Below are positions 19,778-37,500 of a stretch of 64,000 bases of DNA, in pieces. A model generated the notes under the pieces. The model worked only from the letters and a program-made list of their open reading frames with translations. It ran no database searches and was not told the DNA's origin. The translations under genes and the position numbers were made by a program. Origin of the DNA: an uncultured Fibrobacter sp. (GTDB lineage Bacteria > Fibrobacterota > Fibrobacteria > Fibrobacterales > Fibrobacteraceae). Positions within the stretch are counted from its first letter, which is position 1, and every line of letters starts with the position of its first letter. The stretch spans positions 13,397 to 77,396 of the forward strand of contig NZ_CAMZCS010000011.1 in NCBI RefSeq assembly GCF_947305105.1, in the 5' to 3' direction.

Positions 19778-19788
19778 AGGAGCGCATT

Positions 19789-20073
19789 ATGGGAACCACA
19801 ATGAATACAATCAGCGCAAGAATTGATTCAAAGCTCAAAACACAAGCCGAAAACCTGTTCGACCAACTCGGGATGAACATGTCAACGGCAATCACCGTTT
19901 TCTTGAAGCAGGTCGTCCGTCTACGCAAGATTCCTTTTGAAATTGCACTTGACACCCCAAACGACGAGACCATCGCTGCCATGACCGAAGCAAACGAAAT
20001 TGCCAGCGGCAAGCGCAAGGCTAAATCTTACAAGAACGCAAACGCAATGATCAAGGACATTCTAAACGAATAA
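19789..20073 (+). CDS. dinJ: Type II antitoxin, RelB/DinJ family
   Basis: It has TISARIDSKLKTQAENLFDQLGMNMSTAITVFLKQVV (the RHH DinJ signature), and its stop overlaps the toxin ATG (TAATG). Confidence 0.85.
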   Translation: MGTTMNTISARIDSKLKTQAENLFDQLGMNMSTAITVFLKQVVRLRKIPFEIALDTPNDETIAAMTEANEIASGKRKAKSYKNANAMIKDILNE

Positions 20074-20348
20074 TGGAAATCAAGACCACATCAAAGTTCA
20101 GGAAGGATCTTAAGCAGGCAAAAAAGAAAGGGCTAAATATGGCCCTCCTGCAAAAGGTCGTTGATGATTTGGCGGCAGGGAAAAAGCTAGACGACCGGCA
20201 CCATGACCACGCCCTCGTCGGCGATTGGGTTTCTTTTCGCGAATGCCACATTCAGCCGGACTGGCTGTTGATTTACAAGATTTCAGGCGACACGCTCATA
20301 TTGACGCTAGCGCGAACAGGCTCGCACAGCGAGTTGTTTAGGAAATAG
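20073..20348 (+). CDS. yafQ: Type II toxin, YafQ/RelE-family mRNA interferase
   Basis: 91 aa with TSKFRKDLKQAKKKG, HHDHALVGDWVSFRECHIQPDWLLIYK and ARTGSHSELF (the YafQ C-terminal motif). Confidence 0.85.
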   Translation: MEIKTTSKFRKDLKQAKKKGLNMALLQKVVDDLAAGKKLDDRHHDHALVGDWVSFRECHIQPDWLLIYKISGDTLILTLARTGSHSELFRK

Positions 20349-20351
20349 AAG

Positions 20352-20383
20352 AAGACCGCAGCGGTTAGGCTACGGTCTTTTTT
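20352..20383 (+). terminator. Intrinsic terminator after yafQ
   Basis: AAGACCG-loop-CGGTCTT followed by TTTTT. Confidence 0.6.
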
Positions 20384-20460
20384 AATGCTGTTAGAGATTG
20401 CCACGGCCTTCGGCCTCGCAATGACAATGAGGCTATTCGCCCCTCGCCATGACATGCGGA

Positions 20461-23154
20461 TTATGCCGGCTTCACAACGATGTTGACCAGCTTACCCGGC
20501 ACAACAATCGACTTGACAACCTGCATTCCGTTCATAAATTCCTTCATGCGTTCATTTTCCATGGCGAGCTTTTCGAGGGCGGCCTTGTCCATGTCCTTGG
20601 CAACGGATGCCTTCGCGCGGACCTTGCCGTTCACCTGGAACACGACTTCCACGGTGTTTTCGACGGCCTTGGAGTGGTCGGCTTCCGGCCAGGCGACGTT
20701 CGTGAGCGATTCGTTGTGTCCGAGGATGCTCCACATTTCTTCGGCGATGTGCGGGGCAAACGGGTGCAGCAACTTCACAAAGGTTTCGCACGGTTCGCGG
20801 TAGCGCTTGTCCATCTTCATCATTTCGTTGTTGAAGATCATCAGCTGGCTAATCGCGGTGTTGAAGCTCATGTTCTCGATGTCGCTCGTGACCTTGATGA
20901 CGGTCTGGTGCATCACCTTCTCGATTGCTTCCGGGGCAGTTTCATCAACGAACACCGGGGCTTCGTCAGAATCGCCCACCACAGAACGCCAGGCGCGGCC
21001 GAGGAAGCGGTTCATGCCTTCGATGCCCTTGGTCTGCCACGGCTTCACGGCATCCAGCGGGCCCATGAACATTTCGTACAAACGAAGGCTGTCGGCACCG
21101 TAATCGCGCACAACGTCATCGGGGTTCACAACGTTCTTGAGGGACTTACTCATCTTCGCCACAATCTGCTTGAGCTCGATGTCGGTTCCCTTCTTGAAGA
21201 ACTTTCCGTTCTTTTCTTCGACTTCGTCAGTCGGGACCTTGGAGCCAGCGGCGTCTTCGTAAGCGAAGGCGAGAATCATGCCCTGGTTGAAGAGCTTCTG
21301 GAACGGTTCGTCGGTAGAGACGAGGCCGAGGTCGAAGAGCACCTTGTGCCAGAAGCGGCTGTAGAGCAGGTGGAGCACGGCGTGTTCGGCACCGCCCACA
21401 TAGAGGTCGACCGGCATCCAGTACTTTTCAAGTTCCTTTGCAACAAATGCGTCGCCGTTGCAGGCATCGATGTAGCGCAGGTAATACCAGCAGGAACCAG
21501 CCCACTGCGGCATGGTGTTCGTTTCACGGATACCCTTGCGGCCGTTCTTGTCGACGACCTGGAGCCATTCGGTAGCGTTGGCGAGCGGAGACCGTCCGCC
21601 GTCACCCGGCTTGTAGTCCTTGAGTTCCGGCAACAGCACCGGCAGTTCGGAATCATCGACGGTAGAGATTTCGCCATCTTCCCAGTGGATAATCGGGAAC
21701 GGTTCACCCCAGTAGCGCTGGCGGCTGAAGAGCCAGTCGCGGAGCTTGTAGTTCACAGTGGCCTTGCCGATCTTGTTGGCTTCGAGCCATTCGATGACCT
21801 TCGCGATACCCTGCTTCTTGTTGAGGCCGTTCAGGCAGAGCGTTGCATTTTCGCTGTTGATGTAGGTGCCGTCGGCAGCCCAGCAGGCTTCGCCCTTGAG
21901 CACGAGCGGCTTCACATCTTCGGGGCAGCTTGCATCGGGTTCCATGATGCAGATGACGGGCAAATTAAACTTCTTCGCGAAATCGAAGTCGCGGGTATCG
22001 TGGGCGGGCACGGCCATGATGGCGCCCGTGCCGTAGCCGGTCAGAACGTAGTCGGCGACCCACACCGGAATCTTGGTGCCGGTAAGCGGGTTCACGGCAT
22101 AGCTACCGGTAAACACGCCGGTCTTTTCCTTGGCGAGTTCGGTACGGTCGAGGTCGCTCTTCAAAGCGGCGGCGTGCACATATTCTTCCACGGCGGCCTT
22201 CTGTTCGGCAGTCGTGAGTTCCGGCACCATGGCGTGTTCCGGGGCGACGACCATGTAGGTGGCACCGAACAGCGTATCGCAACGGGTGGTATAGACGCGG
22301 AGCTTCTTTTCGGTCGGCTTGCCTTCAGCATCGGCGATGGCAAAATCCACTTCGGCACCGAAGCTCTTGCCAATCCAGTTCTTCTGCATGTCCTTCACGC
22401 CCTGCGGCCAGTCGAGCTTGTCGAGGCCCTTCAGCAGGCGGTCGCCATACAGAGGAATGCGCATGAGCCACTGCTTGAGGTTACGGCGTTCCACTTCCTT
22501 GGTGCCGCACTTTTCGTGGCTGCCGTCGTTCAAGACTTCTTCGTTCGCGCACACAATCTTGCAGTGCTTGCACCACCACACCTGAGCGTCGGCGTAGTAA
22601 GCGAGGCGCTTGGAATCCTTGTACTTGCGGACTTCTTCCTTGCCCTTTGCTTCGACATCGGCAGGAATCGGGAGTTCTTCGATGGGGCGGCCTTTCTGCT
22701 GTTCTTCATCGAACCAGGTGCCGTAAAGGCGCTTGAAAATCCACTGCGTCCACTTGTAATACTTCGGGTCGGTGGTGTTGACTTCCTTGTTCCAGTCGTA
22801 GCTCAAGCCAAGGCGCTTGATCTGGCGGCGGAAATTGTCGCAGTTCTTCTTGGTCGTGATGGCCGGGTGCGTACCGGTCTGGATGGCGTACTGTTCAGCG
22901 GGGAGGCCGAAAGCGTCCCAACCCATCGGGTGCAACACGTTGAAACCGCGGCTGCGCTTGTAGCGGCAGATGATATCGGTAGCGGTGTAACCTTCGGGGT
23001 GGCCCACATGGAGGCCTGCGCCACTCGGGTACGGGAACATGTCCAGGCAGTAATACTTGGGCTTGGACTTATCGGTGCCCGTCTTGAAAGTCTGATGTTC
23101 TTCCCAGTAGGCTTGCCACTTGGTTTCGATCTCTTGCGGATTATACTTAGCCAT
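20461..23154 (-). CDS. leuS: Leucyl-tRNA synthetase
   Basis: It has [31 protein letters not shown] (HIGH), KMSKSLKN (KMSKS) and a full-length class Ia architecture. Confidence 0.97.
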
Positions 23155-23245
23155 TATTTTATACCTCAATAGATTCTGCTAGGTATGAGGTTTGAGGTCG
23201 CCGAGCCCATACCTCATAGCTCTATATTTTTCGGGCATAAATTTA

Positions 23246-23281
23246 GAAAAAGCCCGGGAGAGCGGCTTGCAATCCCGGGGC
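23246..23281 (-). terminator. Intrinsic terminator after the lipoprotein array
   Basis: On the minus strand, CCCGGGA-loop-TCCCGGG is followed by CTTTTT, 32 nt downstream of the stop at 23313. Confidence 0.5.
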
Positions 23282-23312
23282 TAGTCATCCACAAAAATGC
23301 GCATTTATAAAG

Positions 23313-24800
23313 CTAATCCGCCGTTGTCTTCTTTTCGTAGCGATTCCAAAGGCGTTCAACTAGAACCGTCTCGCCAGAAATGCACTGGTAGATTTTTTCG
23401 GGTTCATCAAAAGAATACCCATTAGCCCTCCGCTTCATTCCTTCGGTCTCCGTACAACACCACGTGGAGCCTCCGCAGGGTAAACTATCCAGGTCAATAT
23501 CATCGGCATGTATGTCTTCGATTGTTTCCCGCGACCATTTGCCATCCCCACGGTATCGATAGTGATTCGGGGAGAAGCAGTAATCGTAGACATTCGGATA
23601 ATCAAAACCCAAGGTTTTATTATGTTCACAATATTCAAGCAGCCCACTAGCGCGGTCGCCTACCTTGGCGTCTTTGGGCAAATCAAGCATATCGTATTCC
23701 TCGTCGGTCAAGCCTTCTTTCCGTGAATCCGTATATTGCCGCGGTACAAACTTTGTCGGCAACCATGAGTTAACGTCGCAGTAATAGTATTCCTCGCCTT
23801 TTTTAGCATACCGACGGCGCCAATAGTTACCATCGTTCTCCGTACAAAAACCTAATTCGGGGTCAAAGACTGCTGCAGTCCAACGGCCGACATCCGTATC
23901 AACGCTATCGTACCGGAAAAAATTTATTTTGCCGAATCTTTCAAAAGAACATGTATCTCCAAAAACATCATTTTCCGTTGCGCAATAATAATTCTCTATA
24001 CTTAACTCCACCCACTTTCCGCCATTGCACTTATAAAAAAGCGTATCATTGGTGAAGACAAGCTTTTCTTTAACCTCTTTGTTTTCGTCATTACATTCTT
24101 TTTCTGGACCCGCAGGGCAATCTACATTTTTCCAAGAACCATCACCAGCATACCTGTAGCATTCCCAGGTGTCGGAACCAAACTGGATTCCACGAAAAGA
24201 AGTTTGCAGCCGACAAAGATCCCCTTCGTTCACCCCGGTGGTATCACAGGCAACCCATGCCGGACTTTCAACCCAATTCTCTTGTTCACATCTGTAATAG
24301 ACACGTGCGTTCCCGCCTTTGGGATTGGGACTTCCAGTCGTTAAACTATCGACAATGCCCTCGTTTTCGGCGTTGCATTTCTTGAAATGCAGTACTTGAG
24401 CGTATTCTGGTTCAGCGATACGGTCCTCGTCCGAAACGATGATCGCAGTATCAGGGATATCCTTGGCGGGAACGAAGGACCACTTATTGTCCTGGCACTT
24501 ATAAGTACAACCTGCAGCCTCTTGCCGCAAGATACCGGTCTCTCTGTAGTATACCCCGTCTATTTCCAATGAATCGCCACATACATATGGCAGTCCAGTG
24601 CGAGTCACGGAATCGCAATAAGCAGAATCTAGTTTAACAGAATGTGTTTCTGAGAACCCCAGAGCAGGGGCCTCAGGCGCAAACTCCAGAACAGGGGCCG
24701 ACGATGAATCGTCGCAGGCGGTCAAGGCAAGAGTCAAGCCAAAGGCCAACGCGCAGGCGGCCGTGAACAAGCATTTGTTTTTCGTGAGCAATATTGACAT
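23313..24800 (-). CDS. Cys-rich lipoprotein, paralog P1 of the tandem array
   Basis: A GGAGG SD precedes MSILLTKNKCLFTAACALAFGLTLALTAC. It carries the modules FKKCNAENEGIVDS, YYRCEQENW, FYKCNGGKW and QYTDSRKEGLTDEEYDMLDLPKDAKVGDR. Confidence 0.85.
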   Translation of the reverse strand: MSILLTKNKCLFTAACALAFGLTLALTACDDSSSAPVLEFAPEAPALGFSETHSVKLDSAYCDSVTRTGLPYVCGDSLEIDGVYYRETGILRQEAAGCTYKCQDNKWSFVPAKDIPDTAIIVSDEDRIAEPEYAQVLHFKKCNAENEGIVDSLTTGSPNPKGGNARVYYRCEQENWVESPAWVACDTTGVNEGDLCRLQTSFRGIQFGSDTWECYRYAGDGSWKNVDCPAGPEKECNDENKEVKEKLVFTNDTLFYKCNGGKWVELSIENYYCATENDVFGDTCSFERFGKINFFRYDSVDTDVGRWTAAVFDPELGFCTENDGNYWRRRYAKKGEEYYYCDVNSWLPTKFVPRQYTDSRKEGLTDEEYDMLDLPKDAKVGDRASGLLEYCEHNKTLGFDYPNVYDYCFSPNHYRYRGDGKWSRETIEDIHADDIDLDSLPCGGSTWCCTETEGMKRRANGYSFDEPEKIYQCISGETVLVERLWNRYEKKTTAD

Positions 24801-24855
24801 GACAACCTCCATGCACAGAAGCACTTAAAAAATACAATAGGAACACAAAGCAAAT

Positions 24856-26844
24856 CTACTTCTTTTCGGACCGGCCAAAAGTATACCCCACAAGCTCGTC
24901 TTTACAAGTGCATTCTGTTTCACTCTCACACTCAACGCTGATTCGCTTGAAGTTCTTTCCAGGCTCTCGCGATTCGAGCAAAGAGATGTATTCCGCGCCT
25001 TCCGATTCAGGAGTACATTCAGGTGGATTCTTGTGCTTGTCGCTTTCCAGATCTTCTTCCGTTTCCAACGTCCAGGTGCCATTTTCACGATATCGATAAT
25101 ATTTTTTCGACATGCAGTAATCATACGTCTCGTAATACAATTTATGCGACACGTAAAATCCCATATCCATATCGTTAAAGCAGTTCTCCAACAAGCCGCC
25201 GACACGGTCCCCTACCGAAGCCTCTTTCGGCAAGTCCAGCACATCGTATTCCTCGTCGGTCAGGCCCTCTTTACGCGGATCCGTATATTGATGCGGGACA
25301 AGACCTGCCTCCAACCACTCGCCCCCATAGCAGTAATAAAATTTTTCGTCTTTCTGAATATACCTCGTTTCCGTATGAACCTGCGGACAGTAGCCAAGCA
25401 CAGAGTCTACAGTGGATTCTACCCACATATTTCTTGGGTCCTGAGAACTTTCCAGTTGCACATCAATAAACAAATAATGCCGCGTGCTATCTCCCAACTT
25501 GACGGAGCATGTATCGCCAATTTTCGGTTTCTCCGGTTTCTCCGCAGTGCAATAATATTCAATTTCATAATCGTTTTCATAATCGCTTTCACTCATCTCG
25601 ATCCACTTGCCGTCAACGCACTTGTAATAGAACTCAATAACATCTGGAGCTACACCATAAGAATGTTTTTCTTTTCTCCCCTCGTTTTCAGCAGTACATT
25701 CCATTGTCCATTGAGCCAAAGAGCTATCAGAATTACTTCGATTACCAAGAACATCAGAAAAGGCCAAAGGCTCCCAAACGCCGTCACCCATATAGAGATA
25801 CGTATTTTTGCCATAACAAACAGAATGACATCCCATGATGGATTTTCCCGTATTAACGCAAACCGATCTTTTACAAATTGCCCCTACTGACACTCCCGCA
25901 GTATCGCACACGAGATTCGAGCCGTCTTCATCAGAATTGTCCACTCCACAAAGACCTTCATAATGGCCATCAAATTCATTCCAAGAGCCTTGTTCGCACC
26001 TGTAATATTTTGTGTAACCGTAATCGATCTTTGGGTTCCAAGGTATATGAACGACGGAATCTACCAGCCCCTCATTTTCAGTGTTGCATTTCTTGAATTC
26101 AAGCATCTCCCTTTCACCACTAAACCTAAAAGGTTCAATAGCATAAGTTAGCACCATCGCACTATCAGGCGGTTCATCCCCTTTGGAAAGAAGAGACCAT
26201 TTACTATTTTCACATTTCCAATATCGCGGCATCGAGGAACAAGTTTCCGTGACTTTATAATATGCACCATCAATTTCAAGCGATTCATCACAGGACTCTC
26301 CAATTTCAAAATGACGAAGAGACGCTTCACACGAAGTTTCATCATCACGCACCCACTCATTGTTTTTACACGTGTAGAAATCTACAAACATGTGTACATT
26401 TTCTTGCCCCGTTGAATCAACAAGGCCTTCGTTCTTGGCATTGCACTTCCGGAAATCGGCGAAGGTTCTCTTTACATCGCAAGCAACACCCAAGCATTTT
26501 TCGAAAACTATAGTTTCCTCAGTAGAATCTTTTGCTTCAGAAACTTCCGCTTCAGTAACGCTGATCCATTTGCCATTTTCGCATTTATAGTAAGAATATT
26601 CATCATCTTCTGGAGTGAAGACTCTTAGATATCGGCCGTCAACTTGCATGTCATCGCTACAAATCAAATCCTCAACTTTCAAGGGCAACTTTGTTGCAGG
26701 AGACGGAGTCTCGGCACCGGAATCATCCAATCGCACCATAGTCTTATCATCGCCATCGCAGGCGGTCAAGGAAAGCGCCAGCAAGAAGGCCAGCGCGCAG
26801 GCGGCTTTGAAAAAGCATTTGTTTTTCGTGAGCAATATTGACAT
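24856..26844 (-). CDS. Cys-rich lipoprotein, paralog P2
   Basis: It starts MSILLTKNKCFFKAACALAFLLALSLTAC and has the same modules. About 760 bp (25175-25937) and 248 bp (26543-26790) are virtually identical to P4. Confidence 0.9.
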   Translation of the reverse strand: MSILLTKNKCFFKAACALAFLLALSLTACDGDDKTMVRLDDSGAETPSPATKLPLKVEDLICSDDMQVDGRYLRVFTPEDDEYSYYKCENGKWISVTEAEVSEAKDSTEETIVFEKCLGVACDVKRTFADFRKCNAKNEGLVDSTGQENVHMFVDFYTCKNNEWVRDDETSCEASLRHFEIGESCDESLEIDGAYYKVTETCSSMPRYWKCENSKWSLLSKGDEPPDSAMVLTYAIEPFRFSGEREMLEFKKCNTENEGLVDSVVHIPWNPKIDYGYTKYYRCEQGSWNEFDGHYEGLCGVDNSDEDGSNLVCDTAGVSVGAICKRSVCVNTGKSIMGCHSVCYGKNTYLYMGDGVWEPLAFSDVLGNRSNSDSSLAQWTMECTAENEGRKEKHSYGVAPDVIEFYYKCVDGKWIEMSESDYENDYEIEYYCTAEKPEKPKIGDTCSVKLGDSTRHYLFIDVQLESSQDPRNMWVESTVDSVLGYCPQVHTETRYIQKDEKFYYCYGGEWLEAGLVPHQYTDPRKEGLTDEEYDVLDLPKEASVGDRVGGLLENCFNDMDMGFYVSHKLYYETYDYCMSKKYYRYRENGTWTLETEEDLESDKHKNPPECTPESEGAEYISLLESREPGKNFKRISVECESETECTCKDELVGYTFGRSEKK

Positions 26845-26859
26845 AATTGACTTCTTGAG

Positions 26860-28275
26860 TTACAAGCCACTTTTTTGTGATCGACTATAATTATAGTCCA
26901 CAAACACCAACTTTCCAGAAGTACATTTGTAAATCTCACCAGGCGGATACGCATCTTCTGAAGTAGGCAATACTTCAACTTCACGGCCCTCGTTTTCTTC
27001 TGAGCATTCAAAATCCTCAAACCGAGAATCTTTTTCTATATCGTCTTTCGTTTCCGAGGTCCAAGAGCCATTTTCGCGATACCTATAATAGTTTCGTGGC
27101 AAACAGTAATCGTACTTATCACCAACCGAATCCCCAAATTCTAGATATGCATTATACCAACAATCTTCCAATAGCCCACCGGCACGGTCTCCAACCTTGG
27201 CATCCTTGGGCAAGTCCAGCACATCGTATTCCTCGTCGGTCAGGCCCTCTTTACGCGGATCCGTATATTGATGCGGGACAAGACCTGCCTCCAACCACTC
27301 GCCACCATCACAATAGAAATATTTCTCATCATCTGATTTAGCATAAATCGTTCTATATTCCGGATCAAAAAGGTGCGGACAATAACCAAACTTGGAATCA
27401 TACGTACTTTCCCGCCATCCATATTGCTCAACAAAGTAATAGTACTCCATCTTGCCATCGTCCGATTCATAGGAACACGTATCCCCATCTGTCGGTTTTT
27501 CTTTGGCGCAATTTTCTTCCACAGTACGAGCATCCCCATCAAACCAATCTCCATAAATACATCGATAAGAACGTACTATCGTATCTGATCCAACAATCCA
27601 TGAATAATCCTTATATTCATTATTGCATTCGCCCAATATATCTTCTGCAGGCTCCCAAATTCCATCACTTGTATATATGTATGCTGTCGCGACCGAGCCC
27701 CTTCTGTAATAAATTGTATACAAACATGGTTGCCCAACTTGCACGTCCGTGGTACCACAAGTAAATCCTACATCGTCATTAACCCAGGAACCTTGTTCGC
27801 ACTTGTAATAGTGTTTGAGTTCGATAGGGCCATCTGGTACAACAATAGAATCGACTATCCCTTCATTTTCAGCGTTGCATTCCTTAAAATCATTCTTTTG
27901 GAACATGTCTCTATTATCTGCAGTTGATACATAAACCGCACCAACAGGGATTTCTGTACTAGAAACAGCGTTCCATTCATTATTTTCGCATTTGTAATAA
28001 ATAATATCAGGCGATGCGCCACATGGTGATGACTCTAAAATCCAATTATTGCTCCCTCTGCTCGCAAAAAAATATCCCTCTAAAGAATCATTGCAAGGTT
28101 GCATCGGTTTAATAACGCTAGCACGAAGAGAATCGCAATGGGCCTCATGGGAATCATTCTCGGATGCCGACACATTATCATCGCCATCGCAGGCGGTCAA
28201 GGAAAACGCCAACAAGAAGGCCAGCGCGCAGGCGGCCGTGAACAAGCATTTATTTTTCATAGGCAACATTGACAT
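26860..28275 (-). CDS. Cys-rich lipoprotein, paralog P3
   Basis: It starts MSMLPMKNKCLFTAACALAFLLAFSLTAC. It contains YYKCENNEW, FKECNAENEGIVDS, YYKCEQGSW and FYCDGGEWLEAGLVPHQYTDPRKEGLTDEEYDVLDLPKDA. Confidence 0.85.
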   Translation of the reverse strand: MSMLPMKNKCLFTAACALAFLLAFSLTACDGDDNVSASENDSHEAHCDSLRASVIKPMQPCNDSLEGYFFASRGSNNWILESSPCGASPDIIYYKCENNEWNAVSSTEIPVGAVYVSTADNRDMFQKNDFKECNAENEGIVDSIVVPDGPIELKHYYKCEQGSWVNDDVGFTCGTTDVQVGQPCLYTIYYRRGSVATAYIYTSDGIWEPAEDILGECNNEYKDYSWIVGSDTIVRSYRCIYGDWFDGDARTVEENCAKEKPTDGDTCSYESDDGKMEYYYFVEQYGWRESTYDSKFGYCPHLFDPEYRTIYAKSDDEKYFYCDGGEWLEAGLVPHQYTDPRKEGLTDEEYDVLDLPKDAKVGDRAGGLLEDCWYNAYLEFGDSVGDKYDYCLPRNYYRYRENGSWTSETKDDIEKDSRFEDFECSEENEGREVEVLPTSEDAYPPGEIYKCTSGKLVFVDYNYSRSQKSGL

Positions 28276-28330
28276 CTCACCTTCCATGCACAAGAGCACT
28301 TAAAAAATACAATAAGAACACAAAGCAAGC

Positions 28331-30304
28331 CTACTTCTTTTGGGACCTAACAAAAATGTAATCAATGATTTCATCTTCACAATCATAATAGGGACCGGAT
28401 TCAGAAGCCCATGGAGTCACCACCTTCTCGCGTTTGTAAATTGTTCCCGGTTCATCTGAAGTAGGCGGCTTACTCCATTCCATACCTTCTGTTTCTGGAG
28501 TACAATCGGGGACATCGAAAGACGGGTCATCTTGTATGTCATCCCATGTTTCCAAAGTCCAGGTACCATCCTCGCGATAACGATAGTAGTTTTGACGCAA
28601 ACAAAAATATACATCATAATTTTCAGTAATTAGTTTACTATTAAAGCATTTCTCCAACAAGCCGCCGACACGGTCCCCTACCGAAGCCTCTTTCGGCAAG
28701 TCCAGCACATCGTATTCCTCGTCGGTCAGGCCCTCTTTACGCGGATCCGTATATTGATGCGGGACAAGACCTGCCTCCAACCACTCGCCCCCATAGCAGT
28801 AATAAAATTTTTCGTCTTTCTGAATATACCTCGTTTCCGTATGAACCTGCGGACAGTAGCCAAGCACAGAGTCTACAGTGGATTCTACCCACATATTTCT
28901 TGGGTCCTGAGAACTTTCCAGTTGCACATCAATAAACAAATAATGCCGCGTGCTATCTCCCAACTTGACGGAGCATGTATCGCCAATTTTCGGTTTCTCC
29001 AGTTTCTCCGCAGTGCAATAATATTCAATTTCATAATCGTTTTCATAATCGTTTTCATAATCGCTTTCACTCATCTCGATCCACTTGCCGTCAACGCACT
29101 TGTAATAGAACTCAATAACATCTGGAGCTACACCATAAGAATGTTTTTCTTTTCTCCCCTCGTTTTCAGCAGTACATTCCATTGTCCATTGAGCCAAAGA
29201 GCTATCAGAATTACTTCGATTACCAAGAACATCAGAAAAGGCCAAAGGCTCCCAAACGCCGTCACCCATATAGAGATACGTATTTTTGCCATAACAAACA
29301 GAATGACATCCCATGATGGATTTTCCCGTATTAACGCAAACCGATCTTTTACAAATTGCCCCTACTGACACTCCCGCAGTATCGCACACGAGATTCGAGT
29401 CGTCTTCATCAGAATCGTTCACTGCACAAACATTTTCATAATGGCTATCATATTTAATCCAAGAGCCTTGTTCGCACTTGTAATAATCTGTGTACCCGTT
29501 ATCGAACTTTGACTCAGCCATATGAACGACGGAATCTACCAGCCCTTCATTTTCAGCGTTGCATTTCTTGAAACGAAGTCTTTGGATTAAATCCCTACTT
29601 GATAATGGAAACGGATCATACACAATTCCATCTACACCCCTAGAAATAGACCATTTATTATTCTCACATTTATAATATCTATCACCACAACCTCCATTAT
29701 AAAAACTACTGTATTTGTAAAACGCCCCATCAATCTCATACGATTCATCACACAATATATTCGGTTCAAAATCACGAAGATATGCATCACATGTAGCATC
29801 AATATCATACACCCACATATTGTCTTCGCACGTATAAAAACTTACTTCTCTAGAATCATCTAAATCTACCGTTGAATCAACAAGGCCTTCGTTCTTGGCA
29901 TTGCACTTCCGGAAATCGGCGAGGTCTCTTTTAATATGGCAATCAACGCCTAAGCATTTACTGAAAACCAAATCTTCCTCAGTAGATTCATATGCTTTAT
30001 CAACTTCCGCTTCAGTAACGCTGATCCATTTGCCATTTTCGCATTTATAGTAAGAATATTCATCATCTTCTGGAGTGAAGACTCTTAGATATCGGCCGTC
30101 AACTTGCATGTCATCGCTACAAATCAAATCCTCAACTTTCAAGGGCAACTTTGTTGCAGGAGACGGAGTCTCGGCACCGGAATCATCCAATCGCACCATA
30201 GTCTTATCATCGCCATCGCAGGCGGTCAAGGAAAGCGCCAGCAAGAAGGCCAGCGCGCAAGCGGCCTTGAACAAGCATTTATTTTTCATGGGCAATATTG
30301 ACAT
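28331..30304 (-). CDS. Cys-rich lipoprotein, paralog P4
   Basis: It starts MSILPMKNKCLFKAACALAFLLALSLTAC and is mosaic with P2 (see findings). Confidence 0.9.
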   Translation of the reverse strand: MSILPMKNKCLFKAACALAFLLALSLTACDGDDKTMVRLDDSGAETPSPATKLPLKVEDLICSDDMQVDGRYLRVFTPEDDEYSYYKCENGKWISVTEAEVDKAYESTEEDLVFSKCLGVDCHIKRDLADFRKCNAKNEGLVDSTVDLDDSREVSFYTCEDNMWVYDIDATCDAYLRDFEPNILCDESYEIDGAFYKYSSFYNGGCGDRYYKCENNKWSISRGVDGIVYDPFPLSSRDLIQRLRFKKCNAENEGLVDSVVHMAESKFDNGYTDYYKCEQGSWIKYDSHYENVCAVNDSDEDDSNLVCDTAGVSVGAICKRSVCVNTGKSIMGCHSVCYGKNTYLYMGDGVWEPLAFSDVLGNRSNSDSSLAQWTMECTAENEGRKEKHSYGVAPDVIEFYYKCVDGKWIEMSESDYENDYENDYEIEYYCTAEKLEKPKIGDTCSVKLGDSTRHYLFIDVQLESSQDPRNMWVESTVDSVLGYCPQVHTETRYIQKDEKFYYCYGGEWLEAGLVPHQYTDPRKEGLTDEEYDVLDLPKEASVGDRVGGLLEKCFNSKLITENYDVYFCLRQNYYRYREDGTWTLETWDDIQDDPSFDVPDCTPETEGMEWSKPPTSDEPGTIYKREKVVTPWASESGPYYDCEDEIIDYIFVRSQKK

Positions 30305-30310
30305 GATAAT

Positions 30311-31330
30311 TTACTCCGCCGATTCCTTGCAATGAGGCAAATCGTAATATTCTTTGACTCTCCATCCAAAATAGGTTTCGTAAACATAAATGGCACTCCC
30401 ATACCAAGGATACTGTTCAGTAACCTCCGCAGGCGGCGTATAGCAACACCGATTATCGTTTCCATTGTTCGGCTCGCCACAATAGGAATGCACCGCCACC
30501 TCATCTGCAAAAAGCGTCTTCCATTCTTTATTCAAGCATAATGAGTAACACGTCTTCGAAGTTTTTGCAGACTTGAGCGTAGAATCAATTTTATTGTTGA
30601 TGCTTTCAGTACACGCATCGGCCGGAACAGAGCACGAATCTGCAGGATCATAGCTGAATTCTTTACATTCAAGGTCGCTATATACGCCCTGATTCGTCCA
30701 GCCATCTTCAGTGTACTTATAAAGGACGCTATAAGATGGGTATGTCACCTTAAAAGTACTATAAATGACATCACAGCATTCATCACCAACCTTTGTTTCT
30801 GCCGTGGTACACTTAGCGAGAGTGCCGTTAATCAAATTCCACTCGCTTTTTTCGCACATGTAATATTTCACGCCCTCATCGAGAGTTACCGTTGAATCAA
30901 CAAGGCCTTCGTTCTTGGCATTGCACTTCTGGAAATCGGCGAAGGTTCTCGTATTGAGGCAGGCAACACCCAAGCATTTATGCAAGATCAAATCATCCGC
31001 AACAGGAATTTCCGCATTAGAGACGCTGGCCCATTCGCCATTTTCACACTTGTAGTAAGCTTTTTCAGCCGGTTTTGAAGAGCTGGTGCTGACCATTTCT
31101 AGATATCGGCCATCGACTTCCATGCTATCGCTACAAACTAAGTCCCCGGTTTTCAAAGGCGAGTTTGTCAAGGGAGACGGAGTCTCGGCACCGGGACCAT
31201 CCCCAGATATCGAGATCACCGAAGGTGACGTTCCGTCTTCGTTACAGGCAGTCAGAGAAAGTGTCAGAGCGAAAGTCAACACGCCAGCAATATTGAAAAT
31301 CCGTTTATTTTTCTCGAACAACATAGACAT
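30311..31330 (-). CDS. Cys-rich lipoprotein, paralog P5 (short form lacking the acidic LVPHQYTDPRKEG module)
   Basis: It starts MSMLFEKNKRIFNIAGVLTFALTLSLTAC and contains YYKCENGEW, FQKCNAKNEGLVDS and YYMCEKSEW. It is first in the presumed operon, with AAGGAG before the ATG. Confidence 0.85.
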   Translation of the reverse strand: MSMLFEKNKRIFNIAGVLTFALTLSLTACNEDGTSPSVISISGDGPGAETPSPLTNSPLKTGDLVCSDSMEVDGRYLEMVSTSSSKPAEKAYYKCENGEWASVSNAEIPVADDLILHKCLGVACLNTRTFADFQKCNAKNEGLVDSTVTLDEGVKYYMCEKSEWNLINGTLAKCTTAETKVGDECCDVIYSTFKVTYPSYSVLYKYTEDGWTNQGVYSDLECKEFSYDPADSCSVPADACTESINNKIDSTLKSAKTSKTCYSLCLNKEWKTLFADEVAVHSYCGEPNNGNDNRCCYTPPAEVTEQYPWYGSAIYVYETYFGWRVKEYYDLPHCKESAE

Positions 31331-31804
31331 GATTGACTCCTTCGGGTTATTGGCATCTCTTATATTAAGATAAAAAAAAAGAAAAGCCTTCTAAAACAAT
31401 TAAACTTGTTTTTGTTGTAAACAATTTCAACAAGCACCGCTTATTGACATATTGGCAACAATATTTTCTTTACACGTATTCTCAGGACACAAAAAAACCG
31501 CCAAAAGCGAAATTCCTCTCATAGTTCAAACAAACGAATGTTTCCTCGTCACCCCTTGAACACACACTTTCTTTCGGCAAAAAAAATTCGTCATGAAAGA
31601 CTTTCTTATAACGCTTTGGCAAGTCGCTCCAAATAGGCGCAGGCCTCAAGGACCTCGGCAATTGCAAACATTTTGGGCCAAAATCTGTCTTTTTTTGAAA
31701 ATTTGCTCACAAAAGCCTTTATTCCATAGAAATATTCCATAATAGGATATAAAAAAACAGCCCTACACCGCCCTAATAAAAAGAATTAAAACTATTTTTA
31801 TAAT

Positions 31805-32797
31805 ATGTTATCAAAACTTCGCATATTTGCTGTCATCTTTTTGTTGATGTGCGTCACATCATTCGGTCAAAACACTTATGAGACCGATGTTGACTCCGCA
31901 TGGATTGCCTCCCAGAACGGCGGCAGGACAGAACTGAACGACGGGAACAACGAGCCCAACCCCGACTGTATCGGTGACGGCTGCGGTGTGACCACCTTCG
32001 AAACTAGGCAAGGCGACACTCAGCAAAGTGCAGCCGCAAACAACCAAGACGACGAAGAAGAGTGTACTCCGGCCGATTCAGCCAATCCGGACTGCGCCGA
32101 CGACACGGCCGATTCCACTGCATCCAAGAAATCTGTCACATACAACGAAGACGCCGACGCATTATACGTAAACGAGAACCGTGAAATTTACCGCGCCCGC
32201 AAGGAAGGTTTCTACACCTCCATCAATTTGGGATTCCGCCTAGGTGGTGGCGTCAACTTGCTTTTCGGCGAAAAAGCCGACACCTGGAACCCCGGTTATC
32301 TCGGCAACTTCGGGCTGTTCGTCAGGATTCCGTTCGGCGCCCAGACATTCAGGATAATGACGGCACTGGATTTCAGCTATCGCCGCTACCTGCACGAAGA
32401 AACCACGGAAATCAGCGACAACGAAGCCTATGTCGAGATGTACATGTTCGAAATTCCGTTCATGCTCCGTTACATTGGCGAAGACGACGGATTTTTCTTC
32501 GGCGTGGGCGGAGATTTGGGCCTCAAGCTCTCCGGATTTTCCGAATTCCGGCAAGAAACGCAAATCGAAGGGAAAATGCAGAAGGACAAACGCGACAAGA
32601 CCATCCCCACAAACGGCGTAGAACTGGGTGCGGTAGTTGACTTCGGCTTTATTTTCAACAGCCACTTCGGGTTCGACATCCGCATCGTGCAATATTTTAC
32701 CAACCTCGTGGACGAAGACAATTTGGCGGAATCCTCACTGTTTGGTTCCGAATTATGGCCTTTTAACGCTTCTTTCGGCATTTTTTACCAATTCTAA
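31805..32797 (+). CDS. Outer-membrane beta-barrel protein (OMP_b-brl_2/PorT-like) with an acidic Cys-containing N-terminal extension
   Basis: It has the signal peptide ..CVTSFGQ, alternating amphipathic strands, MFEIPFMLRY, and the terminal FGIFYQF (aromatic C-terminus typical of OMPs). Confidence 0.75.
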   Translation: MLSKLRIFAVIFLLMCVTSFGQNTYETDVDSAWIASQNGGRTELNDGNNEPNPDCIGDGCGVTTFETRQGDTQQSAAANNQDDEEECTPADSANPDCADDTADSTASKKSVTYNEDADALYVNENREIYRARKEGFYTSINLGFRLGGGVNLLFGEKADTWNPGYLGNFGLFVRIPFGAQTFRIMTALDFSYRRYLHEETTEISDNEAYVEMYMFEIPFMLRYIGEDDGFFFGVGGDLGLKLSGFSEFRQETQIEGKMQKDKRDKTIPTNGVELGAVVDFGFIFNSHFGFDIRIVQYFTNLVDEDNLAESSLFGSELWPFNASFGIFYQF

Positions 32798-32947
32798 TTT
32801 ATTCATGAAACTATCCGCGGGCCCCAAAAGCCCGTTTTTTGCACATTTTTCGTAAAAAACAAATTACCAATATATTTTCTCAACACAAATTTTTGAAGAT
32901 ATTTTTAGGAGAGCGTTGTTTACAATTAATATTGTTATAATTCAAGT

Positions 32948-33781
32948 ATGAAAACGAAAACACTTTCCCTGATTTGTGCTTTTATTTTCGCGTTTTCTGG
33001 AGCCGTCTTTGCACAGGACGACGATTCGGATGATTGGATTGGTGGTGATTCCAATAGCCGCAGTAGGCCAGCAGCATCCAGCTCCTACGACGGCGGAGAT
33101 GACAGCGAATTCGCAAACGACGAAGATTACGCACAGGCTTACGCCCGTTACAAGAACGAGGCGACTTCCAAGGCCGAAATCAACCGTCAGCGTACGGAAG
33201 GTTTCGCCCGTGCCATCATGCTCGGCGTGCGCGCCCAGGGCGGTACAAACACGTTCTTCGGGACCAATTCCGACGGATGGGGTTTGGGCTGGCAGGCCGG
33301 TGGCGGCCTCATGGTCAAGATGCCCCTGGGAATCAAGGACTTGTTTGTCGTTCCGGAACTCACGTTCAACTTCCGCCAGTACCTTTACAAACAGAGCACG
33401 GACTACGGCACGAACGAAGCTTCCATCGACATCATGATGTTCGAAATCCCGATCATCGTGCGCTATGTCCTCGAAGATTACAACGTCTATCTCGGCCTTG
33501 GTCTCAACATCGGCCTCAAGCTCACGGGTTCTTCGGAATTCGATATGGGCCTCGACATGGGCAACGACAAGCACTACGAGAACACCATCGCCACGTCCGG
33601 TGTCGAAGTCGGCGGTGCGCTTGACTTGGGCTACATGTTCAGCCGCTACGTACACTTCAACATTCGCGTGGTGCAGTGCTTCACGAGCCTTTTGAACCAG
33701 ACGCTGGTCGCACAGAAGGAATTCATGGACTCTACCTTGCTCACGTTCTACACGACAGCGGGTATAAACATCTTCTTCTAA
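32948..33781 (+). CDS. Outer-membrane beta-barrel protein, paralog of 31805-32797
   Basis: It has the signal peptide ..SGAVFAQ, an acidic DDDSDDW.. extension, MFEIPIIVRY, and the terminal AGINIFF. Confidence 0.75.
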   Translation: MKTKTLSLICAFIFAFSGAVFAQDDDSDDWIGGDSNSRSRPAASSSYDGGDDSEFANDEDYAQAYARYKNEATSKAEINRQRTEGFARAIMLGVRAQGGTNTFFGTNSDGWGLGWQAGGGLMVKMPLGIKDLFVVPELTFNFRQYLYKQSTDYGTNEASIDIMMFEIPIIVRYVLEDYNVYLGLGLNIGLKLTGSSEFDMGLDMGNDKHYENTIATSGVEVGGALDLGYMFSRYVHFNIRVVQCFTSLLNQTLVAQKEFMDSTLLTFYTTAGINIFF

Positions 33782-33787
33782 ACGGAA

Positions 33788-34507
33788 ATGGCTGTTAAAG
33801 GCTATGTACACTCTTTCATCACCGGGGCCGCATCTGACGGTCCCGGTGTTCGTTTTGCGCTGTTCACTACGGGTTGCCCGTTCCGCTGCCTGTATTGCCA
33901 CAACCCCGACACTTGGAACCTCCACGACGGCAACGAGACGGATTCGGACCACATCCTGGCCGAAATAGGGAAATACGCCGGGTTCCTGCGCATGGCAGGG
34001 GGGCTGACCATCACCGGCGGTGAACCGCTCGTACAGGCTGACTTCGTACACGACATCTTTGAGCGAGCTAAGAACGAGCTGCACTTGCACACGGCGCTTG
34101 ACACGCAGGGATTCCTTGCCGCGGGCCTACCCGACGAATGGTTCGACAGCGTGGACCTCGTGCTGCTCGACATCAAGGAAATGAACCCCGAGACACACCA
34201 GAAACTCACCGGCAAGCCCCTCCAGCCCACACTGGACTTCGCGCAACGGCTCGCCCGCATGGGCAAGCCCGTCTGGCTGCGTTACGTGCTCGTTCCAGGC
34301 CTTACCGACAGCGACGAGGACCTGCAGGCCCTGGCAGACTTCATCGAGCCCCTAAAGAACATTGAGCGAGTGGAAGTACTCCCCTTCCACAACATGGCCA
34401 TCCACAAGTGGGACGACCTCAAAATACCCTATACGCTCCGCGACACGCCGAGCCCGACAACCGAGCAAGTGGAGCACGCCAACAGCATACTTCAACGCCG
34501 TCGCTAA
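33788..34507 (+). CDS. pflA: Pyruvate formate-lyase activating enzyme (radical SAM)
   Basis: It has GYVHSFITGAASDGPGVRFALFTTGCPFRCLYCHNPDTW (CxxxCxxC), GGLTITGGEPL and VEVLPFH. Confidence 0.9.
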   Translation: MAVKGYVHSFITGAASDGPGVRFALFTTGCPFRCLYCHNPDTWNLHDGNETDSDHILAEIGKYAGFLRMAGGLTITGGEPLVQADFVHDIFERAKNELHLHTALDTQGFLAAGLPDEWFDSVDLVLLDIKEMNPETHQKLTGKPLQPTLDFAQRLARMGKPVWLRYVLVPGLTDSDEDLQALADFIEPLKNIERVEVLPFHNMAIHKWDDLKIPYTLRDTPSPTTEQVEHANSILQRRR

Positions 34508-34542
34508 GAGTCCCTTACTCCTAGCCATCCCGGCTATAAAAA

Positions 34543-34568
34543 AAGAGCACGCCCATCGGCATGCTCTT
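34543..34568. terminator. Bidirectional hairpin terminator between pflA and the giant cadherin gene
   Basis: AAGAGCAcGCC-catc-GGCaTGCTCTT, flanked by an A-run upstream and a T-rich sequence downstream. Confidence 0.55.
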
Positions 34569-34592
34569 AATTTCATTATGGCAGCGAGGCCA

Positions 34593-37500
34593 CTATTTCT
34601 TTTTCTTCTTCGGCCTCTTGTAGCCGAACGACTTGAGCAGTTCGTCCGAAGCATAACGCTTGTGGCCGATTTCCTCATCCGGGAGTTTGCAGCGCAGCTC
34701 GGCAACCGACTTGACTTCGGTCTTGAAGATGTACGCGCCCGTACCAAGCAAGCGGCCTTCCTGCGTCACCACGTCGCCATTTAAGTCAGGAGTCAATTCG
34801 AAGAACATCTTGATTTCGCCAACATCGTTGACGAATTCCGGATCGTTCAAGTCTTGCTCAAAACGGTATTCGTTCAAGAATGAACCCAGATTGGAATAAA
34901 CCCAGACATTCACGTGCAGTTTCATCTTGAAGAGGTTGGCCTTCGCGTTGTCGCCCTTGTATTCCTTGCGGAACTCGGCATTACAGTAATTATTGACGTA
35001 TTCATCAACAGTCACCTTCTCGCGGTCCCAGCCACCACCGACATCGAGCGAAATCAGGCCATCGCGTTCGAGGAGGTCGTCCAAGGTGCAGAGGCCGGAA
35101 GCAGGATTGTCGCCGCAACGAGGCGCCACAGCATCAAAGGAGAGCGTCGGACCAAGGTGACCCCCATTGACTCCCGGATAGGGTTCTTCGAGGTCACCCT
35201 TCTTCTTGCCGAACGAGCCACCGACAAGCGTCTTCATTTCCTTGTCTTCCTTCGGATTGTACAGGCTCACTGCAAACGACTGGCCATCCTTCGGAGGATT
35301 GTCGCCATAGTACTTGGCAACGGAATCCGCATCGATTTTCGTGACCGGTTTTACGACATGCACATTGATGGACTTCGGGTTCTTCATGACAACGAAGACC
35401 GTATCCGAAGCCTCGTTACCCGCCTTGTCGCGGTATGTACGTATGATGGCGTTGATGCCCACCTTCAAGCCCTGGATCGTAAGGGTGTCTTGCACTTCGC
35501 CATCCACAGTCCACGTGACATTGACTCCGCGCGTGCGCACGATAGCCTTGTTCTCGGGAGAGGTAATCTTGACCACCGGAACAACCTTGTCCACGACGAT
35601 GAAGATGTTCTTCGTGGCAATGTTGCCGAACTTGTTCTTGTAGGTGTAGCTGACTTGGTAACCGTAGTTGCCTTCTTCGTTCTTGACAATTTCGCCCTTG
35701 TCATCTACAGAATAACGGACGCCCACATGCCCGCCGAAGTCGTCGTCGAACTCGTAGGAGTATTCGTAAGAGCCACCGTTATCGTCCTTAATCAGTTCAC
35801 CGGTAGTGCCGTTCACCTTGTAAGAGACCGTGACATCCTTGCCGCCAATGACCGTCTGGTACTTGACCGTCATCACCACATCGCCGTCTTCGTTCTTGAT
35901 TTCGCGACCCTTCTTGTCGGTGTTGTAAGAGACCTTCACCTTCTTACCGTCTACCTTCATGTCGAAGGAGACTTCGTATGTCTTGTCGTTAATCAGGTTA
36001 CGCGTTGTCTCGGCAGATTCGGCGTCATCCATCGTGATGTCCTTCTTCTTGGACACCTTCTTGACATCCGACAAGGACTTGCTGATATTCAACAGGGAAT
36101 CGAGACGGAGATTCGTATTGAACGTGGAGTCTGTCTCGGTCGCCTTGTCCTTGATATGGATACGCACCTCGTTCAATTCGTGGTTCACGTAGAAGTTCGT
36201 ATCGTTCTCGTCGACTTGTTCAACAATCGTCACGTTCGAAATGGCAACCGTATCTTCGGCAATCTTCGATATCGTCACCTTCGGGATAGAATTGTCCACA
36301 ATGACGACAACGGAATCGCAGCCCGGTTTGTCCTTTGTCGGGTCGTCAAAGCAGACCTTGACAATGTAGGTGCTGTCTTTCGGGAACTTCACCGTGGTAT
36401 CCGGCTGCAGTTTATTGTCGACAGTCCATTCGAAATCGATTTTCCTGGAGTTGGTAAAGATGGTATCGGGTTCAAGCCAGAGGGAATCCTCATCGCTTGC
36501 ACGGGTAATCTTGACATCGGGCACTTCGACGACGTTCTGCACCTTGATAGTCACGTGCGCCGTATCGAGGCTACCATCGTCGCCTTCCACAACCACAACC
36601 AGTTCGTACTTCTTCTTGGTCTCGTAATCTAGCGCTTCAACAAGCTTGATTTCGCCATTTTCCGACACCTTGAATTCCTTGACATTGTTAATGAGAGTTA
36701 CCTTGACCTTGTCGTTCTCAGGATTATCAATGACAAGCTTGGCAAAAGTCGTATCCGGCTTGGCATCTTCGCGAATGACGAGAGTCGTATCGTCCATCGT
36801 CGGAATCTCGCGGATATCATCAATCCAGATTTTCACAATCGCCGTAGAAGAAACTTTCTTCGTGTCGGTCACGAAAACCTTCAAATCGTAGTGGTTCTTG
36901 GTTTCGTAATCAAGGTTTGCGCCACTCTTCACGGTAATACGACCAGAAGAAGAAATCTCGAATTCGTTGGAACTTTCCGCAAGCGAGAACACCAACACGG
37001 AATCCGGGTCTTCGGCATCGTGAGCCACCACAGTCCCGACTTTGGTCTTTGCCGGAGAGTTCTCGGCCACATGGAATTCGGCAGGCTCAATTACCGGGGC
37101 CTCATTCACATCGTCCACGATAATCAGGAACCGGGCCGTATCGGACATGCTGTCCGTATCGGTCACGTAGATTTCCAAAATGTAGCTGGTCGTCGATTCG
37201 TAATCAAGCACGCCGCTCTTCTTCACGGTAATGCGGCCGGACGTAGAAACATCGAACTCTTCCGATGTGCCAATGAGCGTATAGGTCAACAGCGAATCGG
37301 CGTCTTCTTGGTCCATGCCGATAGCCTTACCGACAAGCGTCTTGGCCACGGCCGTTTCGGCCACGTGGAAGGTGTCGGCCTCGAGAACCGGAGCTTCGGG
37401 CACATTCTCGACATTAATCTTCACCTTGCCAATGGAGGTCAATCCCTTAAGGTCGGCCACCTCAACCTGCAACGTGTAAGACTTGGTGCGTTCGTAGTCA

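Follow-up and report, generated by a model that had tools for sequence, protein, structure and literature searches.

This work concerns five co-oriented genes on the minus strand of a 64,000-nucleotide (nt) stretch of DNA, hereafter the window, from an uncultured Fibrobacter sp. (RefSeq assembly GCF_947305105.1, contig NZ_CAMZCS010000011.1, positions 13,397 to 77,396). The genes occupy window positions 31330-23313 in the order P5, P4, P3, P2, P1, and they probably constitute a tandem array of paralogous envelope lipoproteins, belonging to an unnamed family restricted to Fibrobacter and evolving by ordinary homologous recombination. The evolution of this array is the common concerted evolution of tandem envelope genes together with allele exchange, and not the work of a dedicated variation machine. 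The five genes, with the lengths of their products in amino acids (aa), are listed in order of transcription.

30311..31330, minus strand: P5, 339 aa, first gene of the array; predicted lipoprotein with N-terminal family modules and without the conserved C-terminal acidic signature
28331..30304, minus strand: P4, 657 aa; predicted lipoprotein with approximately 10 Cys modules
26860..28275, minus strand: P3, 471 aa; predicted lipoprotein, ortholog of a 424-aa gene at locus L003
24856..26844, minus strand: P2, 662 aa; predicted lipoprotein, mosaic partner of P4
23313..24800, minus strand: P1, 495 aa; predicted lipoprotein, most divergent full-length member

Recombination between P2 and P4

At the DNA level, P2 and P4 share two blocks of near-complete identity, flanked by DNA in which the two genes are 55-70% identical. 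The elements of this mosaic, and the spacers that accompany it, are the following.

30003..30250, minus strand: shared block 1 in P4 (aa 19-100), identical to P2 26543-26790 at 248 of 248 positions; synonymous divergence (dS) = 0
26543..26790, minus strand: shared block 1 in P2, identical to P4 30003-30250
28641..29415, minus strand: shared block 2 in P4 (aa ~297-555), with 3 mismatches and a 12-nt indel relative to P2 25175-25937; dS 0.006
25175..25937, minus strand: shared block 2 in P2, a block of ~765 nt shared with P4
28697..28789 (P4), 27211..27303 (P3) and 25231..25323 (P2), minus strand: 93-nt island that encodes ...LVPHQYTDPRKEGLTDEEYDVLDLPK... and does not differ between the three genes
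29052..29063, minus strand: 12-nt extra DYEN tandem unit, in P4 of the window and of locus L002, not in P2 nor in P4 of locus L001
28276..28330, minus strand: P4/P3 spacer, 55 nt, 84% identical to the P2/P1 spacer; includes the Shine-Dalgarno (SD) motif of the downstream gene
24801..24855, minus strand: P2/P1 spacer, 55 nt, counterpart of the P4/P3 spacer

An earlier reading of the window, made from its letters alone (the sequence-only reading), had described most of these elements. The 248-nt identity and the 93-nt island were exactly as it had given them; in the larger block, the near-identity and the single 12-nt indel stood, with three mismatches in place of the two that it had counted by eye. 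The intervening block and the 3' ends are diverged as stated, at 70% (gapped nucleotide alignment) and 55% identity between P2 and P4, respectively. The LVPHQYTDPRKEGLTDEEYDVLDLPK peptide is near-invariant across the whole family, and the acidic segment that had been assigned to four of the five proteins is exact in P2, P3 and P4 and present in P1 only as a variant (FVPRQYTDSRKEGLTDEEYDMLDLPK).

The codon alignment of P2 and P4 demonstrated how abruptly these blocks differ from their surroundings. Of the shared blocks, the first (80 codons) had a dS of 0 and the second (265 codons) a dS of 0.006. In the block between them it was 0.47, with a ratio of nonsynonymous to synonymous divergence (dN/dS) of 0.77, and in the C-terminal block synonymous sites were saturated (proportion of synonymous differences, pS, 0.85). 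The longest run free of differences between the two genes measured 386 nt; when these differences were shuffled 10,000 times, the longest run averaged 36 nt and never exceeded 88 nt (p < 1e-4). Identical synonymous sites adjoining saturated ones exclude purifying selection and require recombination; the P2/P4 mosaic is real and is the product of recombination.

Comparison with other Fibrobacter arrays provided information on the age of the parts in between. The variable block of P4 (29416-30002) is 85% identical to genes at loci L003, L007 and L008 and ~62% identical to that of P2, which in turn is 78-81% identical to other genes of these same arrays than the counterparts of P4. Altogether, the variable blocks are 78-86% identical to counterparts at other array positions in other Fibrobacter, and the C-terminal blocks of P2 and P4 also have separate counterparts in other arrays. 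The variable parts are thus old paralog lineages. In other species, the regions of the P2/P4 shared blocks are 77-85% identical, and within the array P1, P3 and P5 are 30-60% identical to them. These comparisons indicate that the blocks of identity are tracts of recent conversion superimposed on a pair of old paralog lineages. The sequence-only reading had seen in this pattern a constant scaffold with hypervariable exposed blocks, a design that is contradicted by the confinement of the constancy to the P2/P4 pair of this lineage and by the old-lineage origin of the variable parts.

A similar correction applies to the history of the array. The spacer stretches 24825-24855 and 28300-28330, identical at 28 of 31 positions, are conserved as had been noted, but the duplication of a two-gene unit that had been deduced from them did not hold. 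The DNA of P1 and P3 is only ~40-55% identical once the 5' leader and the acidic island are set aside, and a likeness limited to these two places contradicts such a duplication.

Comparison of strains and loci

Locus L002 (ERZ14210020) is collinear with window positions 36847-14856 at 99.6% identity and carries the same five genes. Over these ~22 kb, the two sequences differ at three places, namely one stretch of leuS and two tracts of the array. In leuS (20686-22702), there are 58 mostly synonymous differences that change 10 of 898 aa, and in the other ~19.9 kb there are none outside the array tracts. The 2-kb stretch looks like a homologous-recombination tract imported into leuS, a housekeeping gene flanking the array. 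The two array tracts are these.

29219..29335, minus strand: strain-variable tract in P4, with 13 differences from L002 (ten substitutions and a 3-nt in-frame deletion), mostly nonsynonymous
25741..25857, minus strand: strain-variable tract in P2, with the same change as the P4 tract

In each of the two strains, the variant tract is identical in P2 and P4. The window and L002 agree in the markers that distinguish these paralogs, namely a C/T site and the 12-nt indel, which were kept at a distance of 155 nt from the tract. A tract allele shared by both paralogs, with paralog-specific markers 155 nt away, is the signature of short-tract gene conversion. Only one such conversion event separates the near-clonal window and L002. 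A donor for the L002 variant was not found among the first nine loci; the matching allele is that of the P2 ortholog at locus L019.

Mosaics between strains were also found at other loci. Locus L001 (ERZ27270648) is 98.9% identical to the window from 38541 to 27513 and has P5, a P4 with both shared blocks, and a different gene at the P2 position; its P4 combines P4 flanks with P2-type internal markers. Locus L019 (ERZ1462223) has a P2 ortholog with both shared blocks, no P4 on the contig, and no P1. P3 is 97-99% identical at the nucleotide level to the 424-aa L003 ortholog over the C-terminal two thirds (dS ~0), and its N-terminus is replaced or diverged relative to the same gene (dS 0.6-2.9). 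The N-terminal modules show a high dN/dS between orthologs, of 0.5-1. These between-strain mosaics in P3, P4 and the P2 ortholog, along with the dS contrast and the concerted 13-difference tract, bear out the non-reciprocal recombination among copies that the sequence-only reading had proposed. P5 is identical in L002 and 99.8% identical in L001.

In L001 (10243-16832), the 99% match to the window ends at 27513, inside P3, and is followed by a truncated P3-like open reading frame (ORF). Past this break lie a 591-aa hybrid with a P3-like N-terminus and a P2-like C-terminus, a 515-aa family member, and DUF4423 genes instead of leuS.

Tandem arrays of 1-7 family genes were present in every Fibrobacter locus fetched, several of them directly upstream of leuS. 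The leuS DNA of these other loci is 92-97% identical to that of the window, and gene content differs sharply even at 97% leuS identity; at L003, for example, there are seven genes, amongst which only the P3 ortholog is close. Large near-identical paralog blocks were not seen in the other arrays, where only stretches of 124-213 nt at 5' ends and spacers were as similar.

Search for dedicated variation machinery

The cassette-shuffling system suggested by the sequence-only reading was not supported by what surrounds the array. No truncated or silent copies of the family were found elsewhere in the 64-kb window, and all five members are complete genes with an ATG, an SD motif and a signal peptide. 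Inverted repeats were limited to five weak ones of 18-27 nt, without pattern, and no site-specific recombinase was found adjoining the array; the genes are all co-oriented and lack the flanking inverted-repeat pattern of an invertase or shufflon. With respect to a diversity-generating retroelement (DGR), the window contains the tract only in P2 and P4, with no further copy to serve as template repeat, and the substitutions were of all types and not adenine-specific. No reverse transcriptase was encoded among the array neighbors, the window as a whole having been covered by no exhaustive scan for this enzyme. Rfam searches returned no RNA family in 19000-35000. Among the hallmarks of cassette antigenic variation, non-reciprocal segmental transfer was observed (dS = 0 tracts, permutation test, concerted strain-specific tract), and an expressed copy with silent donors was not, the array consisting of five complete ORFs.

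The proteins and their module

All five proteins begin with MS(I/M)L..KNK, a hydrophobic stretch and the lipobox LTAC, with D or N as the next residue. The basic n-region, hydrophobic core and [LVI][ASTVI][GAS]C pattern of a lipoprotein (here SLTAC) were found in five of five by pattern matching, and the proteins are accordingly predicted signal peptidase II lipoproteins, lipidated at the Cys of LTAC. The number of Cys residues after the lipobox Cys is always even (22, 30, 18, 28 and 18). Both the shared signal peptide and the even Cys counts had been recognized earlier and hold for every member.

The repeated module measures ~35-45 aa and follows the pattern C-x3-NEG ... YY-x-C-x2-G-x-W, with a variant form C-x-T-x-G-V-x-V-G-D-x-C ... 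Y-x-Y-x-G-D-G-x-W. AlphaFold2 models were all-beta for both the full-length P4, which had the appearance of beads on a string (predicted local distance difference test, pLDDT, 72; predicted template modeling score, pTM, 0.38), and a three-module fragment of P3 (pLDDT 69, pTM 0.51). Every Cys pair in these models encloses a meander of three strands, the first 50 residues are disordered, and the acidic segment contains two short helices. One disulfide probably staples each module.

Searches of Pfam and NCBIfam yielded no match above threshold for any of the five proteins, and PADLOC gave no match. Against PHROGs there was a single weak match, of P3 to phrog_542 (unknown function; E 0.0019). A sequence profile search of the PDB returned only a signal-peptide-like match (E 0.33), and Foldseek comparison of the P4 model and the P3 fragment with the PDB gave only noise (template modeling score <= 0.25, root-mean-square deviation > 7 Å). 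Each of the 58 homologs collected is either a Fibrobacter protein or an unnamed one from a metagenome, and apart from a few FISUMP fusions they carry the annotation hypothetical. When the C-terminal signature was searched in 185,579 species genomes, nine loci were recovered, all in Fibrobacter metagenome-assembled genomes from ruminants. An exhaustive search of 1.84 billion representatives with a 39-column module profile identified 131 proteins, which are cluster representatives at 50% identity; most have a lipobox followed by D/S-rich sequence, and all the named ones among them are Fibrobacter hypothetical proteins. The remaining matches of this profile were motif-level, to SprB-repeat adhesins of the type IX secretion system (T9SS) for the first half of the module and to eukaryotic CBM14 proteins for the second. 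A literature search found nothing on this lipoprotein family, only papers on FISUMP, the lipoprotein export signal (LES) and the S85 envelope proteome. Altogether, these results indicate an uncharacterized lipoprotein family whose modules occur almost only in Fibrobacter lipoproteins and that corresponds to no named family or fold. The sequence-only reading had likewise been unable to assign the module, and with no match in Pfam, NCBIfam or the PDB profile search, and only sub-threshold resemblance to carbohydrate-binding modules and SprB, that statement stands.

The module shares with CBM14 (peritrophin-A) and CBM19, which are small disulfide-rich chitin-binding modules, the hairpin motif C...G...(Y/F)Y-x-C-x2-G, and hhalign aligned it with CBM14 at a probability of 84% over 30 columns. 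CBM14 is essentially eukaryotic or viral and gave no Foldseek match to the window modules. Membership in CBM14 (PF01607) was rejected: the best window score was 14.3 bits against a cut-off of 22.1 bits, and there are two Cys per module versus six. The first half of the module resembles the start of the SprB repeat (PF13573) of Bacteroidota gliding and T9SS adhesins (C-N-A-x-N-x-G-x-V-D-x-x-V), with an hhalign probability of 94% over 22 columns only, and SprB proteins, like the window family with its inferred surface location, are cell-surface proteins of the Fibrobacterota-Chlorobiota-Bacteroidota (FCB) group. In contrast to the SprB repeat, the second half of the module lacks GGT-PY-Y-W, and anchoring is as a lipoprotein and not through a T9SS C-terminal domain. 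SprB membership (37-aa repeat) was also rejected, with no match in the window proteins and matches in 3 of 58 members at E >= 0.078.

FISUMP (Fib_succ_major; PF09603, TIGR02145) lipoproteins are, like the present family, expanded in Fibrobacter, extracytoplasmic and often lipoproteins. The FISUMP domain (PF09603, ~180 aa) was absent from P1-P5 in the Pfam search, and in the relatives P0029, P0051 and P0052 the family core lies C-terminal to FISUMP domains. FISUMP has been proposed to be cellulose-binding or cohesin-like and occurs in 17-119 copies per genome (PMC4704652); in gut bacteria, it is a ligand-binding target domain diversified by DGRs (PMC4159848). Three long Fibrobacter lipoproteins (P0126, P0131 and P0138) carry 8-13 head-to-tail mini-modules of 36 aa (CTSEREGDTASVDGSYYKCQNKAWKEI) and then a C-terminal FISUMP domain; in these proteins, the module seems to be the repeat unit of a stalk.

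The residues that follow the lipidation site are CDGDDK in P2 and P4, CDGDDN in P3, CDDSSS in P1 and CNEDGT in P5. In the Bacteroidetes LES, a polar or basic residue precedes at least two acidic ones, within positions +2 to +6 counted from the Cys (K-(D/E)2, SDDDD; PMC5080379), as described in a paper that makes no mention of Fibrobacter. By analogy with this signal, the acidic post-Cys residues may point to a cell-surface or outer-membrane location. The lipobox, acidic tether, even Cys counts, aromatic-rich hairpins and FISUMP fusion together suggest envelope, probably surface, binding proteins, and a binding or adhesive role would be consistent with the aromatic-rich hairpins, the sub-threshold resemblance to CBM14/CBM19 and SprB, and the fusion to FISUMP in relatives.

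Organization of the array and neighboring genes

The five same-strand ORFs are separated by spacers of 6, 55, 15 and 55 nt in transcription order, as short as had been reported, and all lie on the minus strand. Their ATG start codons are at 31330 (P5), 30304 (P4), 28275 (P3), 26844 (P2) and 24800 (P1), each preceded by an SD-like motif; with the 6-nt spacer, that of P4 falls within the 3' end of P5. The mechanically made ORF list places the starts of P1 and P3 at GTG codons farther upstream. GGAGG or AAGGTG precedes the ATG of MSILL/MSML, which is the likely start of both genes. The five genes are probably co-transcribed. A scan for promoter and terminator consensus sequences found no convincing consensus promoter, and its matches were no better than those in shuffled sequence. 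Two regions at the array ends may have regulatory roles.

31331..31804, minus strand: AT-rich intergenic region, 474 nt, upstream of P5 and divergent from an outer-membrane protein (OMP) gene; presumed promoter region of the array
23247..23279, minus strand: terminator-like hairpin CCCGGGA-N13-TCCCGGG followed by CTTTTT, 34 nt past the P1 stop, between the array and leuS; spotted by eye, having been missed by the consensus scan since its loop exceeds 8 nt

The plus-strand ORFs 25033-25890 (285 aa) and 28754-29368 (204 aa) were rejected as genes, being antisense stop-free shadows of the coding strand. A long antisense ORF of this kind occurs twice because both fall in the duplicated P2/P4 block. 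The G+C content of 24001-32000 is 42-46%, below the 51-55% of the flanks, and the plus-strand GC skew of this region is strongly negative (-0.20 to -0.24), which is consistent with Asp/Glu/Gly-rich coding on the minus strand.

The neighbors of the array include leuS (20461-23169, minus strand, downstream of P1), two OMP beta-barrel genes, a radical SAM gene resembling pyruvate-formate-lyase activase, and genes for a cadherin-repeat protein and a GGDEF protein. The two barrels (31805-32797 and 32948-33781, plus strand) are tandem paralogs of the OMP_b-brl_2 type with acidic low-complexity N-termini; the pair is transcribed divergently relative to the array, and its synteny extends to L001 and L002. 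The cadherin-repeat protein (34593-43334, minus strand) has 2913 aa with at least 13 cadherin-domain repeats (PF00028, PF17803) and is kept in L001 and L002, a giant putative adhesin two genes from the array. Just downstream of leuS, L002 (16494-17041; window ~19600-20400) has a toxin-antitoxin pair of the RelB/ParE-YafQ type. The arrays of L003, L004 and L005 (1611-5696) and of L007 (1-1592) are preceded by genes for an extracytoplasmic function (ECF) sigma factor, a 254-aa protein, an 802-aa Peptidase_C14 (caspase-like) protein and a 100-aa protein, a set that is absent upstream of the window array.

Discussion

In the mechanism that we favor, the proteins would be exported and lipidated at the LTAC lipobox. 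An acidic disordered tether of ~25 residues would follow the lipidated Cys, and then a beads-on-a-string chain of three-stranded beta-meander modules of ~35-45 aa; last would come the near-invariant acidic segment (LVPHQYTDPRKEGLTDEEYDVLDLPK) and, at the C-terminus, a beta region. Partial gene conversion between paralogs would probably initiate in the DNA of the conserved 5' leader, the spacers and the acidic island. Unequal crossing-over would alter copy number, and alleles would be imported from other strains via the conserved flanks.

Several observations weigh against parts of this account. The direction of events may be either of two, the homogenization of old paralogs or the later overwriting of a recent duplicate. 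The comparison loci are all short-read metagenome assemblies, in which a repeat node common to both copies could have imposed identity on the sequence between markers, and the break inside P3 in L001 may be a real rearrangement or a chimeric metagenome contig. With regard to location, the post-Cys motifs are acid-rich but fit the Bacteroidetes export signal only loosely and not at the level of consensus, and that signal is known from another phylum; under E. coli rules, Asp at +2 would mean retention in the inner membrane. Additionally, the resemblance to CBM14, CBM19 and SprB stays under the Pfam thresholds, with CBM14 and CBM19 the commonest of such matches (8 of 58 and 7 of 58 members, respectively; best CBM14 E 0.0079). 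The hhalign targets had been picked by this analysis's own profile, so that CBM14 and SprB are to be taken as leads and not as memberships.

Amongst the alternatives, the one that deserves most attention, although we consider it clearly less likely than the account above, is that the mosaic arose mainly by homologous recombination between strains acting on a recently duplicated gene, with intragenomic conversion in a minor role. It accords with the leuS tract of 2 kb and its 58 mostly synonymous differences, the sole other difference between the window and L002, and with the match of the L002 array tract to the allele of a third strain, L019. The differing distal array half and downstream genes of L001, despite a 99% identical upstream flank, and the P3 N-terminus, foreign relative to L003, fit it as well. 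However, the presence of the same tract variant in both paralogs, with markers 155 nt away kept, calls for at least one intragenomic copy step, and import and conversion are not mutually exclusive, both being ordinary RecA-type recombination. A programmed surface-variation system, in which the copies would serve as donors for frequent and possibly regulated segmental conversion, so that the protein on display would vary within a population, appears improbable. Sharp boundaries of the mosaic blocks, a concerted tract change between near-clonal strains that is mostly nonsynonymous, a dN/dS of 0.5-1 in the N-terminal modules of orthologs, and the fact that, besides leuS, the array alone differs between two near-identical strains speak in its favor. 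Against this, every copy is complete, in one orientation, and has its own ATG, SD motif and signal peptide, leaving no expression site with silent cassettes; neither a recombinase, inverted repeats, a reverse transcriptase nor a template repeat adjoins the array; and the large identity blocks are absent from the arrays of other species. A single conversion event between strains, and the same mosaic fixed in independent samples, make the rate look evolutionary and not per-generation.

Two further explanations carry even less weight. That the identical blocks are an assembly or polishing artefact of a collapsed repeat is very improbable. The identical stretches (248 nt, and up to 359 nt exact) are longer than short-read k-mers, and a graph node shared between paralog markers could produce identity and mimic a concerted tract. 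Nevertheless, two independent assemblies have the same five-gene structure and P2/P4-specific markers, a reproduction of the mosaic that speaks against the assembly collapse named as a danger in the sequence-only reading. On separate contigs from separate samples, L001 has P4 with both blocks and another gene at P2, and L019 has the P2 ortholog with both blocks and no P4; the sequence at the block edges is unique and collinear in all assemblies. Least credible of all is the view that the shared blocks merely mark where the protein is under the strongest constraint, with purifying selection and not recombination having kept them alike. Protein-level conservation of the acidic segment is indeed strong throughout the family, but synonymous sites are identical too (dS 0 and 0.006 over the 80 and 265 codons), and the same regions have diverged in P1, P3 and P5 and in other species to the extents given above, such that an extreme codon-level constraint limited to one gene pair would be needed.

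More speculatively, and with much doubt, the array could be a population-level ligand-diversification locus. The proteins would be surface stalks made of a mini-module not described before, stapled by disulfides and anciently related to the CBM14/CBM19 hairpin, the SprB repeat or both. Through their aromatic faces, the stalks would bind glycans, of the plant cell wall or others; modules reassorted through conversion and through import of alleles, with leuS and the conserved islands as anchors, would tune binding specificity or evade recognition by rumen phages or protists.

Outer-surface gene families that evolve by segmental conversion include Helicobacter pylori babA/babB, Neisseria opa and the Mycoplasma vlp/vsa lipoproteins. 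The array resembles these families in its co-oriented, complete envelope-protein paralogs with shared 5' leaders, in its patchwork identity with tracts of dS ~0, and in copy-number and content differences between close strains. Unlike them, it belongs to a rumen commensal of the Fibrobacterota and not to a pathogen, its protein family is unrelated, and neither phase-variable repeats nor signs of host immune pressure were seen. Antigenic variation based on an expression site and silent cassettes is known from Borrelia vlsE, Treponema tprK and Neisseria pilE/pilS. With these systems the array shares non-reciprocal short-tract transfer between related surface-protein sequences (with the surface location inferred here), but it lacks a single expression site and promoterless or truncated cassettes, all copies being intact.

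The mechanism itself, concerted evolution through gene conversion in a tandem array, is textbook; the interest of the locus lies in the module and in the strain-level hot spot. The locus defines an unannotated, genus-restricted lipoprotein superfamily that comprises 131 clusters at 50% identity, FISUMP fusions among them; the small Cys-stapled module of which it is built is without structural precedent in the PDB. It is among the fastest-changing places between otherwise near-identical strains and is thus a possible strain marker. Fibrobacter is a major fiber degrader of the rumen, and its attachment to and sensing of plant material are poorly understood; in this context, the array is a candidate for studies of surface interactions such as adhesion, glycan binding, and encounters with phages or protists.

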